Source: a virus
Taxonomy: Duplodnaviria > Heunggongvirae > Uroviricota > Caudoviricetes
Reading direction: 5' to 3' (one strand)
IMG/VR virus record: IMGVR_UViG_2778261395_000003
Length of the DNA: 12,090 bases
Of this stretch, positions 1-12,090 are shown piece after piece. A model generated the notes under the pieces. That model was not told the origin of the DNA and ran no database searches. It saw only the letters and a program-made list of their open reading frames with translations. A program made the translations under genes and the position numbers. The first letter of the stretch is position 1. Every line of letters starts with the position of its first letter.

Positions 1-318
1 ATGAAAAAGATAGCTGCTATATCATTAATTAGTATTTTTATTATGTCTGGTTGTGCTGTGCATAATGATGAGACAAGTATCGGTAAATTTGGTCTTGCAT
101 ATAAAAGTAATATTCAGCGTAAACTCGATAACCAATACTACACCGAAGCCGAAGCTTCTTTAGCCAGGGGTAGAATATCTGGTGCAGAAAATATAGTAAA
201 AAATGATGCAACTCATTTCTGTGTTACTCAGGGCAAAAAAATGCAAATAGTTGAGCTGAAGACAGAAGGTGTAGGATTACATGGTGTCGCTCGTCTGACA
301 TTCAAATGTGGAGAGTGA
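1..318 (+). CDS. yegR: Small lipoprotein (105 aa), host flanking gene, YegR-like
   Basis: Complete ORF with ATG at 1. N-terminal hydrophobic signal followed by lipobox-like M-S-G-C. Size and position next to the P2 remnant and yegQ match what I recall of E. coli yegR. GC content is host-like. Confidence 0.6.
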   Translation: MKKIAAISLISIFIMSGCAVHNDETSIGKFGLAYKSNIQRKLDNQYYTEAEASLARGRISGAENIVKNDATHFCVTQGKKMQIVELKTEGVGLHGVARLTFKCGE

Positions 319-3894: not shown

Positions 3895-4166
3895 GTATTC
3901 GTATTGAAATTGGCGAACGTTATGTCGTTACCAGTGACAGCTTTCAGTTTATTCTCCACGAGAAAAAGAGAGCGGAAAGCGGTAAAAACGCCGGTCAGGA
4001 ATGGCTGGCGGTGGTTGGTTATTACCCGAAATTAAGCCAGCTCGTTTCCGGCCTGATGCATCACGATATTCTGACCGGAAGCGCAAAGTCTTTTGCTGAT
4101 TTAAACGCGCAGGTTGAGCAACTCAGCAGGCGTTGTTCAGAGGCTTTGGGCTCATATGGCCGTTAA
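3891..4166 (+). CDS. Hypothetical early protein (91 aa), P2 orf83 position
   Basis: ATGA overlap with the upstream gene. Its end overlaps the A start, indicating translational coupling. Confidence 0.55.
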   Translation: MSIRIEIGERYVVTSDSFQFILHEKKRAESGKNAGQEWLAVVGYYPKLSQLVSGLMHHDILTGSAKSFADLNAQVEQLSRRCSEALGSYGR

Positions 4167-6423
4167 AGCCTCCGGGCGTTTTGTCCCTCCGTCAGCATTT
4201 GCCGCAGGCATCGGTAAGACGTTTACCGGTGCTTATGCATGGAACGCGCCACGCGAGGCTGTCGGGCGCGAAAGACCCCTTACACGTGACGAGATGCGTC
4301 AGGTGCAAGGTGTTTTATCCACGATTAACCGCCTGCCTTACTTTTTGCGCTCGCTGTTTACTTCACGCTATGACTACATCCGGCGCAATAAAAGCCCGGT
4401 GCACGGGTTTTATTTCCTCACATCCACTTTTCAGCGTCGTTTATGGCCGCGCATTGAGCGTGTGAATCAGCGCCATGAAATGAACACCGACGCGTCGTTG
4501 CTGTTTCTGGCAGAGCGTGACCACTATGCGCGCCTGCCGGGAATGAATGACAAGGAGCTGAAAAAGTTTGCTGCCCGTATCTCATCGCAGCTATTCATGA
4601 TGTATGAGGAACTCTGCGATGCCTGGGTGGATGCGCATGGCGAAAAAGAATCACTGTTTACGGATGAGGCGCAGGCGCATCTGTATGGTCATGTTGCTGG
4701 CGCTGCGCGTGCTTTCAATATTTCTCCACTTTTCTGGAAAAAATACCGTAAAGGACAGATGACCACGAGGCAGGCATATTCTGCCATTGCCCGTCTGTTT
4801 AACGATGAGTGGTGGATTAATCAGCTTAAAGGCCAGCGTATGCGCTGGCATGAGGCATTACTGATTGCTGTCGGGGAGGTGAATAAAGACCGTTCTCCTT
4901 ATGCCAGTAAACATGCCATTCGTGATGTACGTGCACGCCGCCAGGCAAATCTGGAGTTTCTTAAATCGTGTGATCTCGAAAACAAGGAAACCGGCGAACG
5001 CATTGACCTTATCAGTAAGGTGATGGGAAGCATTTCTAATCCTGAAATTCGCCGTATGGAACTGATGAACACCATCGCCGGTATTGAGCGTTACGCCGCC
5101 GCAGAGGGTGATGTGGGGATGTTTATCACGCTGACCACGCCGTCAAAGTATCACCCGACACGTCAGGTCAGAAAAGGCGAAAGTAAAACCGTCCAGCTAA
5201 ATCACGGCTGGAACGATGAGGCATTTAATCCAAAGGATGCGCAGCGTTATCTCTGCCGTATCTGGAGCCTGATACGCACGGCATTCAAGGATAATGATTT
5301 ACAGGCCTACGGTTTGCGTGTTGTTGAACCACACCACGACGGAACGCCGCACTGGCATATGATGCTTTTTTGTAATCCACGCCAGCGTAACCAGATTATT
5401 GAAATCATGCGTCGCTATGCGCTCAAAGAGGATGGCGACGAAAGAGGAGCCGCGCGAAACCGTTTTCAGGCAAAACATCTTAACCGGGGCGGTGCTGCGG
5501 GGTATATCGCAAAATACATCTCAAAAAACATCGATGGCTATGCACTGGATGGTCAGCTCGATAATGATACCGGCAGGCCGCTGAAAGATACTGCTGCGGC
5601 TGTTACCGCATGGGCGTCAACGTGGCGAATTCCGCAATTTAAAACGATTGGCCTGCCGACAATGGGGGCTTACCGTGAACTACGCAAATTGCCTCGCGGC
5701 GTCAGTATTGCTGATGAGTTTGACGAACGCGTCGAGGCTGCTCGCGCTGCCGCAGACAGTGGTGATTTTGCGTTGTATATCAGCGCGCAGGGTGGGGCAA
5801 ATGTCCCGCGCGATTGTCAGACTGTCAGGGTTGCCCGTAGCCCGTCGGATGACGTTAACGAGTACGAGGAAGAAGTCGAGAGAGTGGTCGGCATTTACGC
5901 GCCGCATCTCGGCGCGCGTCATATTCATATCACCAGAACGACGGACTGGCGCATTGTGCCGAAAGTTCCGGTCGTTGAGCCTTTGACTTTAAAAAGCGGC
6001 ATCGCCGCGCCTCGGAGTCCTGTCAATAACTGTGGAAAGGTCACCGGTTGTGATACTTCGTTACCGGCTCCCACACCTTCTGAGCACGCCGCAGCAGTGC
6101 TTAATCTGGTTGATGACGGTGTTATCGAATGGAATGACCCGGAGGTTGTGAGGGCGCTCAGGGGCGCATTAAAACACGGCCTGAGAACGCCAAATCGTCA
6201 GCAAAGAAACGGAAGCTCGTTAAAACCACATGAAATTGCACCATCGGCCAGACTGACCCGGTCGGAAAGAATGCAAATTACCCGTATCCGCGTTGACCTT
6301 GCTCAGAACGGTATCAGGCCGCAGCGATGGGAGCTTGAGGCGTTGGCGCGCGGGGCAACAGTAATTTATGACGGTGAGCGGTTTAGTTATGCTGTAAAAG
6401 ACGATTGGGTGATGTTTTCTTAA
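4156..6423 (+). CDS. A: Rolling-circle replication initiator, P2 gpA / phiX174 gpA superfamily
   Basis: HUH motif H-W-H-M-M-L at 5350-5367. Paired catalytic tyrosines in Y-I-A-K-Y-I-S-K (Y codons at 5503-5505 and 5515-5517), resembling the phiX174 A active site. Start placed at ATG 4156; the track's TTG at 4114 has no spacer after its Shine-Dalgarno-like sequence. Confidence 0.9.
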   Translation: MAVKASGRFVPPSAFAAGIGKTFTGAYAWNAPREAVGRERPLTRDEMRQVQGVLSTINRLPYFLRSLFTSRYDYIRRNKSPVHGFYFLTSTFQRRLWPRIERVNQRHEMNTDASLLFLAERDHYARLPGMNDKELKKFAARISSQLFMMYEELCDAWVDAHGEKESLFTDEAQAHLYGHVAGAARAFNISPLFWKKYRKGQMTTRQAYSAIARLFNDEWWINQLKGQRMRWHEALLIAVGEVNKDRSPYASKHAIRDVRARRQANLEFLKSCDLENKETGERIDLISKVMGSISNPEIRRMELMNTIAGIERYAAAEGDVGMFITLTTPSKYHPTRQVRKGESKTVQLNHGWNDEAFNPKDAQRYLCRIWSLIRTAFKDNDLQAYGLRVVEPHHDGTPHWHMMLFCNPRQRNQIIEIMRRYALKEDGDERGAARNRFQAKHLNRGGAAGYIAKYISKNIDGYALDGQLDNDTGRPLKDTAAAVTAWASTWRIPQFKTIGLPTMGAYRELRKLPRGVSIADEFDERVEAARAAADSGDFALYISAQGGANVPRDCQTVRVARSPSDDVNEYEEEVERVVGIYAPHLGARHIHITRTTDWRIVPKVPVVEPLTLKSGIAAPRSPVNNCGKVTGCDTSLPAPTPSEHAAAVLNLVDDGVIEWNDPEVVRALRGALKHGLRTPNRQQRNGSSLKPHEIAPSARLTRSERMQITRIRVDLAQNGIRPQRWELEALARGATVIYDGERFSYAVKDDWVMFS

Positions 6424-6506: not shown

Positions 6507-7829
6507 ATGAGTGCGTTAAGGGATGAAGTATCTATGAAGGTTGCGTTCTCTAATGGCATGATAAACAAATTATGCAAAAGTTTTTTTTATAGTCATGGTA
6601 AGGAGCAGCCTTGTATCCAAGTCGGTAAAGCATTAGAAGATTTTGTTTTTTGGCTTGCATATAATGATGAGGAGATTGCAAAATGTGCTAGTAGGTTATT
6701 AAAAGCATATGGCCCCCAATTAGGTATAAGTGACCTTCACAATGCGAAAAGATTATTGTTAGGTTTTTGTTCTGAAGCCTTCAATCGCATTGATGCTGAT
6801 TTTCTGTCGCTTAATCCTGATAAGATTTGTGTTGATGATATTATAACGCAAGTTCATAGAAAAAATCTTAGTGAGATGTTTAAGTATTATATACTTTCAC
6901 GAATAAAATCCTGTCCGTATATTTATAATCTTGGGTGTGCTGGCTTTGATGGGAAGCTTGAGCTTAGAGAAAATTTATTTTTATATGGCCCGGGGCTAGG
7001 GGTGGAATTAATTTCTGATATTAAAGACAAAACTGACATCAAGGTTCCTGTTGATTTTTATGATGATGAATATATGCGGCATAAACCAATTGGGAAATAT
7101 TTTCGACAGTCAAAATCCTGCTTGGTGGTGGCATATGCTTCATCAGAGGATAAAGCGGTGAAAATGTTTGATAGTTTGTTTGGAGCTTTATGTCTTGCGG
7201 TTGATAATCCTTTTGCGATTAATCGAGTTGCTGTTAATAATCTAGTTGAGTCTTTTGGTGTCGGGAAATATCATGAAAGTGAGTTTCGGGTGAATATTCC
7301 GTCTGTATATAATTTAAATATAACGGATTCAGCCTTGGCGATACTTACAAAAATACTTTCATCACCTGATAAAAGGATGTTGTCTGCTCTTTCCTTTATA
7401 GCGCACGGGTGGAGGGATGACAAACGTGAAAGGTTTTTGAATCAATTTATAGCATTGGATGCTATGTATGGAACCAATAATGGTAATAAAAATTCAATTA
7501 TTGGCGGTGTTTGCAGAGATGCGGCGAAAATTATTGATATTGATTCAAAAATAGGAATAATCTATGAGCTTAGGTGTAAGTTTGTTCATGGAGATATTTC
7601 ATCGTTATCTGATAATGATAGCTATCGAAAGTTTATTGATAGCTATGGCGTGGACCCTATTGTTTCTCTTTTTGAAATTCTTAAAGAATGCGTCCTTAAT
7701 TATAATGGTACTTACAAAACGCCAAAAGATGTTGGAAAGGCAGATAGGTCTATTTGCGTTCCTGCTGAGTTGCTTCCAGCGGTTGAGAGGATGATAGCGG
7801 AATACAGTGGAGTTAAAAAAACAAACTAA
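6507..7829 (+). CDS. AT-rich orphan cargo protein (440 aa); candidate defence or abortive-infection effector with an R-x4-H motif
   Basis: Long ORF with AAGGAA ribosome-binding site 9 nt upstream. GC is about 25-35 percent against about 55 percent in the adjacent A gene. Occupies the A-to-cos slot. No Walker A motif. C-terminal YELRCKFVHGD contains R-x4-H (R codon 7572-7574, H codon 7587-7589). Confidence 0.75.
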   Translation: MSALRDEVSMKVAFSNGMINKLCKSFFYSHGKEQPCIQVGKALEDFVFWLAYNDEEIAKCASRLLKAYGPQLGISDLHNAKRLLLGFCSEAFNRIDADFLSLNPDKICVDDIITQVHRKNLSEMFKYYILSRIKSCPYIYNLGCAGFDGKLELRENLFLYGPGLGVELISDIKDKTDIKVPVDFYDDEYMRHKPIGKYFRQSKSCLVVAYASSEDKAVKMFDSLFGALCLAVDNPFAINRVAVNNLVESFGVGKYHESEFRVNIPSVYNLNITDSALAILTKILSSPDKRMLSALSFIAHGWRDDKRERFLNQFIALDAMYGTNNGNKNSIIGGVCRDAAKIIDIDSKIGIIYELRCKFVHGDISSLSDNDSYRKFIDSYGVDPIVSLFEILKECVLNYNGTYKTPKDVGKADRSICVPAELLPAVERMIAEYSGVKKTN

Positions 7830-7970
7830 AGATGTTCTTTTTAGCCTCGCCTGCATTAGGTGCATAAATTTGCATTCATTTTCAAATATATCTTTTGACA
7901 GCGAGCACCAGAACAGGCGCTTGCCGGGGGGATGATGCACCTGCATTAAAACCGCCCCATGAAGCGGGCG

Positions 7971-7989
7971 GGCGAGGCGGGGAAAGCAC
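7971..7989. other. cos site: 19-nt P2/P4-type cohesive-end sequence GGCGAGGCGGGGAAAGCAC
   Basis: Exact match to the P2/P4 cohesive-end sequence as I recall it. It sits in a GC-rich non-coding island (about 7895-8040) between two AT-rich blocks, at the position expected between the A side and Q. Confidence 0.65.
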
Positions 7990-8122
7990 TGCGCGCAATG
8001 ATGTCAGTTTGAGGGCATCAGGCATGGGGACACTACACAGTTTCATTTTTGTTATTAATTGTTTATCATATAAGTGTTTGTTTTTTGAACGGCATGTCGT
8101 GTGCTATATGGAGTGAATAGAA

Positions 8123-8392
8123 GTGACTAAATTTGACAAAAAAAAAGCAATTTCTATTTTAACAGAAAAAAAAGCCTTGCTCCCATGTCATCGGTGTGGA
8201 AATTCAAAGTTCATCATTTTGGATGGCATATCATCACTTCCATTAATGGAAAATATGGAAATGATTGGTAGTATTGTTGTTGGCGGAATGAATGCTCCTG
8301 TATTACATGTGGCATGTGAGAATTGTGGTGCAGTTACTTCACATTTGCTTGGGGCACTTGGTTTAATGCCGGAGATTAAATCAAATGACTAA
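8123..8392 (+). CDS. Small zinc-ribbon protein (89 aa), first gene of a two-gene cargo module
   Basis: GTG start with GGAG 8 nt upstream. Two C-x2-C pairs (CHRCG and CENCG) about 40 residues apart. AT-rich. Overlaps the next gene by 8 nt. Confidence 0.6.
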   Translation: MTKFDKKKAISILTEKKALLPCHRCGNSKFIILDGISSLPLMENMEMIGSIVVGGMNAPVLHVACENCGAVTSHLLGALGLMPEIKSND

Positions 8393-8855
8393 GGGTGTTT
8401 TTTTCTCTGATGAAGGTAGTGGTAAAAAAAGTGCTGTCTTGCATGGGGCGCAGGTTACAATAAACCCTGATTCGCAATTTACAAAAAAGATAATTAGGCA
8501 GACTGAGGTTGATGTTATTGTGATAAGTGATGATAAACTTCATATAATTTTGACGAATTGCTTATCTAAAATTGCATCATTAAACCGCTGGTCAACACCT
8601 TTGGGTATTTTAATTACCTTGGCGGTAACTATGTTAACCACAAATTTTAAGAATTTTATTCTTCAGGATTCTGTGTGGGAGGCTGTTTTCTGGATGCTTA
8701 TTTTTTTTAATATTATCTGGTTGGTGAAAAACATTCCATATAGACACTTATTTTTAACTGTTTGTCATTCTATAGGGGTTCGTAAAGATAAAAAAAGAAT
8801 TAGTGATGTATACCACATTATAGATATAATTAAACAAGGTGATACACGCTTTTGA
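8385..8855 (+). CDS. Small membrane protein (156 aa) with two predicted transmembrane helices, second gene of the cargo module
   Basis: Two hydrophobic stretches (WSTPLGILITLAVTMLTT and AVFWMLIFFNIIWLV) after a roughly 65-aa soluble N-terminal region. ATG overlaps the upstream gene's end. AT-rich. Confidence 0.65.
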   Translation: MTKGVFFSDEGSGKKSAVLHGAQVTINPDSQFTKKIIRQTEVDVIVISDDKLHIILTNCLSKIASLNRWSTPLGILITLAVTMLTTNFKNFILQDSVWEAVFWMLIFFNIIWLVKNIPYRHLFLTVCHSIGVRKDKKRISDVYHIIDIIKQGDTRF

Positions 8856-8888
8856 TTTAATATCAATATTTGATTGAGTATATAATAA

Positions 8889-8911
8889 AGCCGCCTGAGT
8901 TTATGGCGGCT
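8889..8911 (-). terminator. Hairpin downstream of the Q remnant, possible intrinsic terminator
   Basis: 7-bp GC-rich stem AGCCGCC/GGCGGCT with a 9-nt loop. On the minus strand it is followed by UUUAUUAUAU, immediately 3' of the Q stop. Confidence 0.4.
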
Positions 8912-8931: not shown

Positions 8932-9936
8932 TCATAATGTGTATTTGTTGAATCTAATTATTTCTTCGCCAACCCATTCATTAAGGGCAATAAAGCGAGA
9001 TTGAATAGGAGTAAGCTCATTGCGGACAAAGACCTTTGCCACTTTCTCAATATCACCCAGCGACCCGACGTTCTCCGGCTTGCCGCCCATCAACTGAAAG
9101 GGGATGCGGTGCGCGTCCAGCAGGTCAGCGGCGCTGGCTTTTTTGATATTAAAAAAATCGTCCTTCGTTGCCACTTCACTGAGCGGGATAATTTTAATGC
9201 CGTCGGCTTTCCCTTGCGGGGCATAGAGAAACAAATTTTTAAAGTTGTTGCGGCCTTTCGACTTCACCATGTTTTCGCGAAGCATTTCGATATCGTTGCG
9301 ATCCTGCACGGCATCGGTGACATACATGATGTATCCGGCATGAGCGCCGTTTTCGTAATACTTGCGGCGGAACAGCGTGGCCGACTCATTCAGCCAGGCA
9401 GAGTTAAGGGCGCTGAGATATTCCGGCAGGCCGTACAGCTCCTGATTGATATCCGGCTCCAGCAGGTGAAACACGGAGCCGGGCGCGAAGGCTGTCGGCT
9501 CGTTGAAGGACGGCACCCACCAGTAAACATCCTCCTCCACGCCACGGCGGGTATATTTTGCCGGTGAGGTTTCCAGTCTGATGACCTTACCGGTGGTGCT
9601 GTAACGCTTTTCCAGAAACGCATTACCGAACACCAGAAAATCCAGCACAAAGCGGCTGAAATCCTGCTGGGAAAGCCACGGATGCGGGATAAATGTCGAG
9701 GCCAGAATATTGCGTTTGACGTAAATCGGCGAGCTGTGATGCACGGCAGCACGCAGGCTTTTCGCCAGACCGGTAAAGCGAAACCGGTCACGCAGAAGAA
9801 AGCGCCAAAAGTACCGGAAGCGCGCGAAGGTGAATACATGGCCGGTGAGGCTGACAACGTTTTTGCCCTGACCACGGTATATGCCACGAAAGCGCAGGCC
9901 ATGCGCGCCGCTCAGGCGAAGTGGGACAAACTGCAA
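8932..9936 (-). pseudogene. Q: Portal protein gpQ-like remnant, N-terminally truncated and fused to antisense D sequence
   Basis: The C-terminal roughly 250 aa look like genuine protein. The first roughly 80 codons are R/F-rich low-complexity sequence lying antisense to the D-fragment frame, so the true 5' part of Q is probably missing. Confidence 0.7.
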
Positions 9937-10155
9937 CGGGGCGTCGCGGAGTTCTCCATCAGCCTGGCTACCGGTCGGGCTGATATTTACACGGAAACAC
10001 CGGTTAAAGTGTCAGGCTTTAAGCGCGTCATAGACGAGCAGGACTGGACAATCACTAAGGTGACACATTTTCTGAATAATAGCGGCTTCACGACGTCCTT
10101 AGAGCTTGAGGTCAGGCTTTCTGATGTGGAGTACGAAACAGAAGATTATGAGTGA
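9682..10155 (+). pseudogene. D: 3' fragment of tail gene D (gpD C-terminal region); yegZ-like remnant
   Basis: The C-terminal sequence (VSGFKRVIDEQDWTITKVTHFLNNSGFTTSLELEV) matches the conserved end of P2 gpD-family proteins as I recall it. The ORF is far too short for a full D (about 387 aa) and sits directly upstream of ogr. The first in-frame ATG within the clearly D-like part is at 9838. Confidence 0.7.
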
Positions 10156-10236: not shown

Positions 10237-10455
10237 ATGTTTCATTGTCCTTTATGCCAGCATGCCGCACATGCGCGTACAAGCCGCTATATCACTGACA
10301 CGACAAAAGAGCGTTATCACCAGTGTCAGAACGTGAATTGCAGCGCCACGTTCATCACCTATGAGTCGGTACAGAGATACATCGTGAAGCCGGGAGAAGT
10401 CCACGCCGTAAGGCCGCACCCGTTGCCGTCAGGGCAGCAAATTATGTGGATGTAA
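10237..10455 (+). CDS. ogrK: Ogr-type zinc-finger late-gene transcription activator (72 aa)
   Basis: C-x2-C-x22-C-x4-C (CPLCQ ... CQNVNC) zinc-binding motif. 72 aa from ATG 10237. Last gene before attR and followed by a strong intrinsic terminator. Confidence 0.85.
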   Translation: MFHCPLCQHAAHARTSRYITDTTKERYHQCQNVNCSATFITYESVQRYIVKPGEVHAVRPHPLPSGQQIMWM

Positions 10456-10467
10456 TTAGAAACAGGA

Positions 10468-10493
10468 AGCCCCTCAGTCGAGGGGCTTTTTTT
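10468..10493 (+). terminator. Rho-independent terminator of ogr
   Basis: 8-bp stem AGCCCCTC/GAGGGGCT with a 4-nt loop, followed by seven T residues. Confidence 0.7.
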
Positions 10494-10498
10494 GTCGA

Positions 10499-10517
10499 TG
10501 TGGTCAATGTGTGGACG
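10499..10517. promoter_or_regulatory. Putative Int arm-type sites (P arm): TGTGGTCA and TGTGGACG, 11 bp apart
   Basis: Same motif family and spacing as the pair at 593-611. A near-consensus IHF-like site (TTTCAATTTGTTG, 10540-10552) lies between these and the core. Confidence 0.4.
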
Positions 10518-10557
10518 TGAACAGAAATAAATCCTTTTATTTCAATTTGTTGTACGT

Positions 10558-10584
10558 AAAAAATAAGCCCGTGTAAGGGAGATT
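10558..10584. repeat. attR core: 27-bp direct repeat identical to 478-504, overlapping the 3' end of cyaR
   Basis: Exact identity with 478-504. Coincides with the terminator and U-tract of the sRNA gene. Confidence 0.75.
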
Positions 10585-10644
10585 ACACAGGCTAAGGAGG
10601 TGGTTCCTGGTACAGCTAGCATTTTATGGGTTATGTTTTTCAGC
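10558..10644 (-). ncRNA. cyaR: CyaR (RyeE) Hfq-dependent small RNA, 87 nt
   Basis: The minus-strand sequence GCUGAAAAACAUAACCCAUAAAAUGCUAGCUGUACCAGGAACCACCUCCUUAGCCUGUGUAAUCUCCCUUACACGGGCUUAUUUUUU matches CyaR as I recall it. It contains the CCUCCUUAG anti-Shine-Dalgarno-like seed and a terminal hairpin (CCUGUGUAA / UUACACGGG) with a U-tract. Located between yegQ and ogrK as in E. coli. Confidence 0.85.
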
Positions 10645-10694
10645 GAAACGGATGATAACCTTAATAAATGCAGCTGTATGTGATCGGTTTCTAA
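10645..10694 (-). promoter_or_regulatory. cyaR promoter with candidate class II CRP site
   Basis: TGTGA-N6-TCTAA (10679-10694) is centred about 42 bp upstream of the inferred transcription start at 10644. A TATCAT-like -10 lies at 10652-10657. CyaR is a known CRP-cAMP-activated sRNA. Confidence 0.4.
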
Positions 10695-10728: not shown

Positions 10729-12090
10729 TCACTTACCGTGTGGGTTACGCGTGGTTTCCCCGGAGAAATTACGCATCAGCAGAGCGTAATTGAGCTCAAG
10801 ATCCTGCGGGACCGGGAGCCACACAGTATAACCATCGCCTGGTGCGACCGGCATCGCTTCACCTTTGGCGTTTTCCATGTGCTCAAGGGTAAAGTTAATG
10901 TTGCCTTGCGGCGTCATCAGCTCAAGGCTGTCGCCAACGGAGAATTTATTTTTCACCGCTACCGCCGCGAGGTCCCCCTTGCGCTCACCGGTAAACTCAC
11001 CAACAAACTGCTGGCGGTCAGAAACTGAATAACCGTATTCGTAGTTCTGATAATCGTCGTGAGTATGACGACGCAGGAAACCTTCGGTATAGCCACGATG
11101 CGCCAGACCTTCCAGAGTTTCCAGCAGGCTGGTATCGAACGGTTTGCCCGCAGCGGCGTCATCGATAGCTTTACGGTAAACCTGTGCGGTGCGTGCGCAA
11201 TAGTAGAAAGATTTAGTACGGCCTTCGATTTTCAGCGAATGCACGCCCATTTTGGTCAGGCGTTCTACATGGGCGATGGCGCGCAGATCTTTCGAGTTCA
11301 TGATGTAAGTGCCGTGCTCATCTTCAAACGCGGTCATATACTCGCCCGGACGCTGGGCTTCTTCGATCATAAACACTTTGTCGGTTGGCGCGCCGATACC
11401 CAGCGTCGGCTCAACATTTTGCACCGGAATCGGCTCGTACTTGTGTACGATGTTGCCAACGTCATCTTCTTTCCCTTCCTGGACGTTGTACTCCCAGCGG
11501 CAGGCGTTGGTGCAGGTACCCTGGTTCGGATCGCGCTTGTTGATATAGCCAGAGAGCAGGCAGCGACCGGAGTAGGCCATGCACAGTGCGCCGTGAACGA
11601 AGATCTCGATCTCCATATCCGGCACCTGATTGCGGATCTCTTCAATCTCTTCCAGCGACAGCTCGCGAGAGAGGATCACGCGGGTCAGGCCCATTTGCTG
11701 CCAGAATTTCACCGTCGCCCAGTTTACGGCGTTAGCCTGCACCGAGAGGTGGATCGGCATTTCAGGGAAGTGCTCACGCACCAGCATAATCAGCCCTGGA
11801 TCGGACATAATCAGCGCATCCGGCCCCATTTCCACCACCGGTTTCAGGTCACGGATAAAGGTTTTCAGCTTGGCGTTGTGCGGTGCAATGTTGACCACGA
11901 CATAAAACTTTTTCCCCAGCGCGTGGGCTTCATTGATGCCGAGCTGAAGATTTTCGTGGTTGAATTCGTTGTTGCGCACACGCAGGGAGTAACGCGGCTG
12001 GCCCGCATAAACAGCATCTGCGCCATAAGCGAAAGCGTAACGCATATTTTTCAGCGTTCCCGCCGGGGAAAGGAGTTCCGGTTTAAACAT
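10729..12090 (-). CDS. yegQ: Peptidase U32 family protein YegQ/RlhA (453 aa, complete)
   Basis: Contains the U32 signature E-x-F-x2-G-[SA]-[LIVM]-C-x4-G-x-C-x-[LIVM]-S (EIFVHGALCMAYSGRCLLS). The ATG is the last codon of the window on the minus strand. Host-like GC content. Confidence 0.9.
   Translation of the reverse strand: MFKPELLSPAGTLKNMRYAFAYGADAVYAGQPRYSLRVRNNEFNHENLQLGINEAHALGKKFYVVVNIAPHNAKLKTFIRDLKPVVEMGPDALIMSDPGLIMLVREHFPEMPIHLSVQANAVNWATVKFWQQMGLTRVILSRELSLEEIEEIRNQVPDMEIEIFVHGALCMAYSGRCLLSGYINKRDPNQGTCTNACRWEYNVQEGKEDDVGNIVHKYEPIPVQNVEPTLGIGAPTDKVFMIEEAQRPGEYMTAFEDEHGTYIMNSKDLRAIAHVERLTKMGVHSLKIEGRTKSFYYCARTAQVYRKAIDDAAAGKPFDTSLLETLEGLAHRGYTEGFLRRHTHDDYQNYEYGYSVSDRQQFVGEFTGERKGDLAAVAVKNKFSVGDSLELMTPQGNINFTLEHMENAKGEAMPVAPGDGYTVWLPVPQDLELNYALLMRNFSGETTRNPHGK

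Follow-up and report, generated by a model that had tools for sequence, protein, structure and literature searches.

Integration of a phage at the 3′ end of an RNA gene has been described for phage 186 (tRNA-Ile), HP1 (tRNA-Leu) and Fels-2/SopE-phi (ssrA) (PMC3448106; PMC3603311). For E. coli, 'cyaR RNA' was tabulated as the P2 prophage insertion site in strain W (Wphi2), K-12 (ogr-D′) and B, and as empty in Crooks/ATCC 8739 (PMC3032704, Table 2). A passage in another paper states that E. coli ryeE was 'previously known to be targeted by phages', which is credited there to Wassarman et al. 2001 (PMC3603311). In the P2 literature the site has not always been presented as an RNA gene, since the P2-type integrases have been described as integrating 'between other genes', with cyaR unmentioned (PMC3448106). 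A literature search returned nothing more specific on the site than PMC3032704 and PMC3603311.

The DNA analysed here is a stretch of 12,090 nucleotides from a virus of the Caudoviricetes (IMG/VR record IMGVR_UViG_2778261395_000003), which is referred to at its full length as the window and numbered from its first letter. The window carries two copies of a 27-bp sequence, which are almost certainly the attL and attR of a P2-family (Peduovirus) prophage occupying the site that P2 classically prefers in E. coli, where the CRP-dependent sRNA gene cyaR has its 3′ end. The cyaR/ryeE site is presumably the locI of the P2 literature, the preferred P2 attB of E. coli, and the P2 remnant of K-12 was reportedly described by Barreiro and Haggard-Ljungquist (1992). 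No evidence contradicting the placement of a P2 element at cyaR was found. The observation is confirmed and is real but known, since PMC3032704 and PMC3603311 had already reported cyaR/ryeE as a phage or P2 site.

The attachment core, its arms and the empty site

The 27-mer AAAAAATAAGCCCGTGTAAGGGAGATT occurs exactly twice in the window, at 478-504 and at 10558-10584, with 100% identity between the copies and a spacing of 10,080 bp; the match ends exactly at both edges with no extension on either side. Both copies are identical to the annotated attP core of P2 (AF063097, 24356-24382). When the parental attP was rebuilt from the sequence left of attR, one core and the sequence right of attL, it aligned to P2 (AF063097, 24243-24537) as a single piece with 98% identity over 296 nt. 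This segment of the P2 record contains, in order, ogr, the ogr/F-operon terminator, the Int P arm, the IHF site, the attP core, the Cox sites, the Int P′ arm and int, and the P2 arm sites align gap-free onto the window flanks of both cores (the att features are given here without a strand). The copy at 10558-10584 is the attR core (P-O-B′). The copy at 478-504, beside int, is the attL core (B-O-P′), its right flank being identical to P2 attP right of the core and its left flank being the bacterial flank found at empty sites.

Left of the attR core lie the ogr/F-operon intrinsic terminator (10466-10492, plus strand), which is supported by the P2 annotation, the fold and a terminator scan, then the P arm with its Int arm-type sites (TCGATGTGGTCAATGTGTGGACGTGA.., 10495-10522; P2 24293-24320), and the IHF site of the P2 attP left arm (10526-10559; P2 24324-24357). 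The consensus of the Int arm sites has been reported as tgTGGaCa (PMC3448106). Right of the attL core lie the Cox-binding region of attP/attL (521-594; P2 24399-24472) and the Int sites of the P′ arm (CTGTGGACACTGTGTGGACAC, 592-618; P2 24470-24496), which overlap the 3′ end of int. The initial annotation had read the sequence beyond the core at attR as phage-derived, and its identity to the P2 IHF site, P arm, ogr terminator and ogr bears this out. On the minus strand, folding places a strong 15-bp hairpin (an inverted repeat, 522-576) directly past the int stop codon and inside the Cox-binding region; this hairpin has no U-tract.

The parental attB, rebuilt from the yegR flank, one core and the cyaR-yegQ flank, gave 100% one-piece matches in many complete E. 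coli genomes, ATCC 8739 among them, and empty sites with a single core were read directly in JJ1886 and 510016. Using a 138-nt probe, the flanks were contiguous (within ~570 bp) in ~4205 of 5426 complete genomes, and using a 339-nt probe they lay within ~670 bp of each other in 4572 of the 5426. Across these 5426 genomes, estimates from coverage thresholds put the site at ~77% empty, ~7% occupied by K-12-type small remnants and ~16% occupied by larger inserts.

A direct repeat of this kind might in principle be a chance match or the target-site duplication of a transposon rather than a site-specific recombination core, a reading for which nothing speaks beyond the existence of the repeat itself. 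However, a perfect 27-mer pair is expected by chance only ~4e-9 times in 12 kb (our own arithmetic), the repeat is the annotated P2 attP core with P2 arms for flanks, and a domain search among the ORFs of the element found no transposase. The identity to P2 attP and the presence of the rebuilt empty attB in genomes rule out both versions, leaving them practically no chance of being correct. The repeat is therefore the recombination core, as the initial annotation had proposed, on the strength of its identity to the annotated P2 core, of the rebuilt attP and of the rebuilt attB.

The arrangement would have been produced by Int-mediated recombination, as judged from the sequence. In attP the core is preceded by ogr, its terminator, the P arm and the IHF site and followed by the Cox sites, the P′ arm and int; P2 Int would recombine this core with the last 27 nt of cyaR, which have the same sequence. 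Because the phage and host cores are identical, the resulting attR would rebuild a complete cyaR, with its promoter, seed region, terminator hairpin and six U, and the second copy of the core, lacking the ascending arm, would stay beside int at attL. A deletion from Q to D following integration would then have removed ~22.5 kb of late genes, and int, C, cox, B/A, cos and ogr would persist in a defective remnant of 10 kb.

The 3′ end of cyaR at the two junctions

A covariance-model search of the whole window placed cyaR (ryeE) at 10561-10646 on the minus strand (Rfam RF00112, model positions 1-85 of 85) at 100.7 bits (E=1.2e-19; gathering score 47), and the fold gave the same three hairpins. 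The mature CyaR runs from about 10644 to 10558, and the span 10558-10644 considered by the initial annotation is bounded by the GCUGAAAA... start and the last base of the U-run. The gene ends in a Rho-independent terminator, seen both by the terminator scan and by folding, with an 11-bp hairpin and a 6-nt loop (10566-10593, minus strand) and the tail UAUUUUUU at 10565-10558; the scan reads the hairpin as followed by TATTTTTT, i.e., a U-tail and an Hfq-type 3′ end. On the RNA strand (10584 to 10558) the core reads AAUCUCCCUUACACGGGCUUAUUUUUU and comprises the final 2 nt of the ascending arm, the loop, the entire descending arm and the U-tract. The Rfam match and the hairpin scan thus agree with the earlier claim that the core equals the last 27 nt of cyaR, and its wording, 'descending arm, loop and U-tract', is essentially right once the 2 nt of the ascending arm are added. 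The cyaR terminator was found to overlap the repeat, not to lie outside it, and the repeat to be the core.

Upstream of cyaR, a TGTGA half-site is present at ~10680, and the bacterial flank is formed by yegQ/trhP (10729-12090, minus strand), identified through the annotation of related loci and through synteny in at least 120 Enterobacterales loci. Both in the window and in at least 120 Enterobacterales loci, yegQ ends ~165 nt upstream of cyaR, which is the conserved position of the sRNA gene downstream of yegQ/trhP. The bacterial flank on the other side is yegR (1-318, plus strand), likewise from related-locus annotation. YegR has a full-length match to phrog_21109, and at least one 'phage' record, ON470606 (vB_EcoM-720R8, a partial genome), includes the bacterial attL flank. 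Because the 720R8 record carries this flank, phrog_21109 may stem from host sequence carried along in records derived from prophages, and yegR need not be of phage origin.

The initial annotation also described an integration into an sRNA gene in the manner in which tRNA 3′ ends are used, and this description holds, given that the core overlaps the cyaR 3′ end and that the attR copy equals empty-site cyaR over the hairpin and six U. Its further suggestion that the formation of the CyaR 3′ end or read-through could be altered needs qualifying. Since the phage and host cores are identical, the terminator is rebuilt exactly, attR restoring the hairpin, the loop and the UAUUUUUU tail base for base. 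The only change in the sRNA gene is the loss of one U: the empty-site allele of this flank type has a run of seven, and the lysogen has six followed by A, because position 477 is A and position 10557 is T. Some lineages are already at six U. Beyond the U-run the downstream sequence is new, changing from AUGCAUAAGCCC at the empty site to ACGUACAACAAA in the lysogen, and ~75 nt past cyaR it runs through the ogr terminator in reverse, which on the minus strand forms a hairpin whose U-tract is weak, and then into antisense ogr. A published reporter study put read-through at the CyaR terminator at 41% and thus found it leaky (PMC9765468), and together with the changed downstream context this makes different read-through products conceivable.

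The lost U, the replaced downstream sequence and the leaky terminator are the points in favour of a stronger proposal, namely that the phage replaces the sRNA 3′ end and thereby materially changes CyaR in its 3′ end, stability, Hfq binding or read-through. This proposal is unlikely, however, in view of the exact regeneration of hairpin, loop and tail. Furthermore, K-12, where CyaR was characterised, already has the lysogen-type attR flank, and three natural alleles of the descending arm give the same hairpin, with folding energies of -19.8, -20.5 and -20.1 kcal/mol. A lysogen with differing cores, described below, most simply keeps the bacterial allele at the cyaR side, with at most ~12 distal nt donated by the phage. 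The effect on the 3′ end would thus be minimal, and the mature sRNA should be essentially unchanged by integration, with CyaR probably expressed normally in the lysogen.

The descending arm of cyaR within the P2 core is polymorphic at core positions 13 and 15 (window 10570 and 10572). On the plus strand of the window, the allele GCCCGTGT is found in P2, in this window and in K-12. The allele GCCTGTGT, which gives a fully Watson-Crick stem, is found at the empty site of the ST131 strain JJ1886, and the allele GCCTGCGT at the empty site of 510016 and, beside a P2-like prophage, in ATCC 11775 and APEC O1. Non-canonical core alleles occur in ~10% of genomes. In ATCC 11775, where the P2-like prophage spans ~36 kb, attL carries the canonical GCCCGTGT and attR the variant GCCTGCGT. 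This difference, together with the match of the Kluyvera- and Citrobacter-type arms to the two E. coli wobble alleles, raised the question whether cyaR receives a foreign descending arm from P2-like phages. Such a donation was rejected as the simplest reading, because the attP cores of all five free phages examined (5/5) are canonical and empty sites carrying the variant exist, so that the attR variant is most simply bacterial. The simplest reading of this one lineage is that a canonical phage entered a variant attB and that both differences were kept at the cyaR side. If this single lineage is representative, the part of cyaR donated by the phage would be at most the distal 12 nt (GGCUUAUUUUUU).

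The second copy of the core, at attL, had been viewed by the initial annotation as a displaced copy of the cyaR 3′ end that could act on the minus strand as a terminator for the C-int transcript. 'Displaced' does not describe it, as the same core is present in the attP of every free P2-type phage examined. As for an intrinsic terminator at 478-504, the copy does retain a U-run (UUAUUUUUUU) and lies ~80 nt past the int stop codon on the correct strand. However, the ascending arm is bacterial and remains at attR, the attL sequence upstream (GGUGACACCCUA) is unable to pair with UUACACGGGC, and the sole local helix (GGGCUUAU/AUAAGCCC) comes after the U-run, not before it. The terminator scan found 0 terminator-like sites on either strand between 300 and 700, and minus-strand folds at attL were no better than shuffles (z = +0.09 and -0.17). 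Nor is the attL copy scored as a partial CyaR, since the search of the window against Rfam, even when relaxed to E<=1, gave no match other than RF00112 at attR. With support from neither the scan nor any of four folds, and with no GC-rich hairpin followed by a U-run found, a terminator role of the attL copy was rejected as very unlikely.

The deletion derivative between the cores

The 10,080-bp element between the repeats is a derivative of P2 from which ~22.5 kb of late genes (head, lysis and tail) have been deleted. What was earlier termed a 'prophage' is a 10-kb deletion derivative and not a full prophage. On the minus strand lie int (584-1597), whose product is identical to P2 Int at 335/337 positions and matches Pfam Int_N and Phage_integrase, and the gene of the immunity repressor C (1713-2012), which matches Pfam HTH_3 and has the length and position of P2 C. 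The plus strand carries cox (2127-2402; Pfam Phage_Cox, 5.5e-48), encoding the excision and switch protein, and gene A (4114-6423; Pfam Phage_GPA, 3e-121), encoding the replication endonuclease. A motif search found one exact match to the 19-nt cohesive end of P2 (cos, 7971-7989, plus strand; 0.01 expected by chance). Right of the AT-rich cargo described below follow Q′ (8932-9779, minus strand), a portal gene lacking ~55-60 N-terminal codons according to the alignment with P2 Q, whose PHROG portal match begins at profile position 56, and D′ (9780-10155, plus strand), a 3′ fragment of the tail gene D that matches the C-terminal part of Pfam Phage_GPD and aligns to the end of P2 D. The late-gene activator ogr (10237-10455, plus strand; 72 aa) matches NCBIfam NF007241 with 177.6 bits and is annotated as ogrK in related loci. 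With an exact cos, with int, C, cox, A and ogr all intact and with the two att sites retained, the remnant would be equipped for mobilisation by a helper P2.

The alignment with P2 places the deletion junction at window 9775-9783 (~9779), where Q (~P2 nt 1050) is joined to D (~nt 23600) with short microhomology. Other strains also carry short P2 remnants of this kind at cyaR, in which the deletion ends at other points, and among complete RefSeq E. coli genomes none covers at least 80% of the window in one place. The P2 position of cos, directly before the Q stop, was considered for the window and discarded, as no alignment was obtained there and the exact cos lies at 7971-7989 instead. The element is probably defective for particle formation.

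The AT-rich cargo (6507-8900, no strand given) flanks cos on both sides, at 6507-7829 and 8000-8900, with a GC content of 33-36%. A 440-aa ORF (6507-7829) has a full-length match to phrog_23812, of unknown function, and the cargo ORFs match only PHROGs of unknown function. The ORFs at 6507-7829, 8123-8392 and 8385-8855 gave no PADLOC defence-system match and no NCBIfam match near the cut-off, and those at 6507-7829 and 8385-8855 gave no Pfam match. In P2, tin and old lie between gene A and the portal gene Q. Because the cargo ORFs occupy this same position, they could be candidate anti-phage defence genes by analogy.

The set of functions retained raises the possibility of a satellite-like 'mini-P2', which would excise, replicate and be packaged via cos using the structural genes of a helper P2-like phage. 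The element keeps both att cores, all arm sites, full-length copies of C, cox, A, ogr and int (the last 99% identical to P2), and an exact cos 19-mer. Short P2 remnants recur at cyaR in other strains, and in Salmonella a degenerate P2-like prophage was described whose replication and integration genes are intact (PMC3632133). However, the deletion end points of the remnants at cyaR differ between strains, which looks like independent decay, and there is no sign of selection for such an architecture. The element also lacks a capsid-size determinant (cf. Sid of P4). The P2 head capacity is far above 10 kb, so that a genome of this size is far too small for it on general grounds. A packaged satellite is thus doubtful, and a defective deletion derivative is the preferred description.

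The site across genomes and its relation to known systems

A repeat search revealed a P-arm-like sequence in the 'bacterial' flank of attB/attL (425-464, without a strand; compare 10490-10529). Its 15-mer TCGATGTGGTCAATG, which is the first half of the P2 P arm, matches at 15/15 positions (18/20 with flanks) and occurs at only two places in the window (0.04 expected). The local alignment scored 21, against 8.2±1.5 for shuffles, 0 of 2000 of which reached this value. This fossil P arm lies 33 nt from the core, compared with 48 nt in attP, and is also present in empty sites and in K-12.

The surroundings of cyaR were further compared in a scan with one genome per species, which gave at least 120 loci, with yegQ-cyaR synteny throughout the loci listed. 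In most of these, yegS starts 84-150 nt after the cyaR stem, e.g., at +95 in Escherichia sp. E1V33, compared with +884 in E. coli. Relative to the other Enterobacterales listed, E. coli has ~0.8 kb of extra DNA between cyaR and yegS, most of it left of the window, consisting first of the fossil P arm, then of a hairpin, yegR (on the opposite strand) and AT-rich DNA. The extra DNA ends in a decayed copy of the cyaR 3′ end (~+796 to +830 after cyaR), which abuts the ancestral cyaR-yegS spacer. This copy matches at 18/36 ungapped positions; its score was reached by 59 of 5000 shuffles and ties for the best among ~950 positions of the interval. Because this layout matches the one expected of the scar of an ancient P2-like prophage, there is an even chance that the 'empty' P2 site of E. 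coli is such a scar, left by a much older element and marked by the fossil P arm, yegR and the decayed core. If this is true, modern P2 would integrate into a core preserved by the attR of its ancestor, and cyaR would be a pan-enterobacterial P2-type attB with host-specific terminator alleles.

Among the matches listed, P2-type attR arms follow cyaR directly in nine other species, each with its own terminator sequence. These arms consist of an IHF region (TGAAATAAAAGGATTTATTTCT), a P arm (GTCCACACATTGACCACATCGA) and a terminator hairpin, and among these matches they were found in Citrobacter youngae (two loci), Citrobacter sp. Awk 4, Enterobacteriaceae G50, Enterobacter sp., Buttiauxella sp., strain BS0013, E. 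albertii (truncated) and Salmonella diarizonae (decayed). These sequence matches suggest that cyaR is in wide use as a P2-type attB among Enterobacteriaceae. The record of Enterobacter hormaechei B56 has a yegQ 100% identical to that of E. coli and an E. coli-type cyaR core, and a 1.9-kb insert after cyaR that ends in a second, partial copy of the cyaR 3′ end with an Enterobacter-type arm (CCCTTACGCGGGCTTATTTTTT). The insert could represent another element at this site, or the genome could be mislabelled or a hybrid.

As a whole, the locus re-derives a textbook-level fact, namely that the preferred P2 site is the end of cyaR/ryeE, with a P2 remnant in K-12. The result is useful as annotation and as an instance of sRNA terminators serving, like tRNA 3′ ends, as phage landing pads. 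It raises no new question, in that the sRNA is rebuilt save for one U and the terminator role of attL fails structurally. The scar, the polymorphic arm with its unlike attL and attR, and the arms in other species are incremental and are relevant to prophage domestication and to the evolution of att sites.

The closest described system is phage P2 itself: its 27-bp core is identical to that of the window, the P arm, IHF, Cox and P′ arm sites are shared, and the integrases are 99% identical. However, P2 is a 33.6-kb phage, whereas the window holds a 10-kb deletion derivative with other cargo around cos. The bacterial side is that of the preferred P2 attB, with the same flanks, i.e., yegR on one side and cyaR-yegQ on the other. 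The cryptic remnant ogr-D′ (ogrK, yegZ) of K-12 has the same attR, including the P arm, IHF site, full core and cyaR, and the same D′-ogr right end. At the K-12-type locus, this remnant follows attR, and the left core is truncated after AAAAAATAAGCCCGTGTA and fused directly to D. The deletion there runs from inside the left core to inside D, leaving ~630 bp, so that attL is destroyed, whereas the window retains both cores and the entire early region.

Integration at cyaR also resembles integration at the 3′ ends of tRNA and tmRNA genes, in that the element carries the 3′ end of an RNA gene, the gene is regenerated and a partial copy is left at the other junction. However, the target here is an Hfq-type sRNA terminator with no tRNA-like fold, the core being made up of the loop, the descending arm and the U-tract. 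The ryeB/SdsR hotspot of Salmonella is likewise an enterobacterial sRNA locus that serves as an attachment site for phages and islands (PMC3603311; PMC3333887), although it involves another sRNA and other phages.
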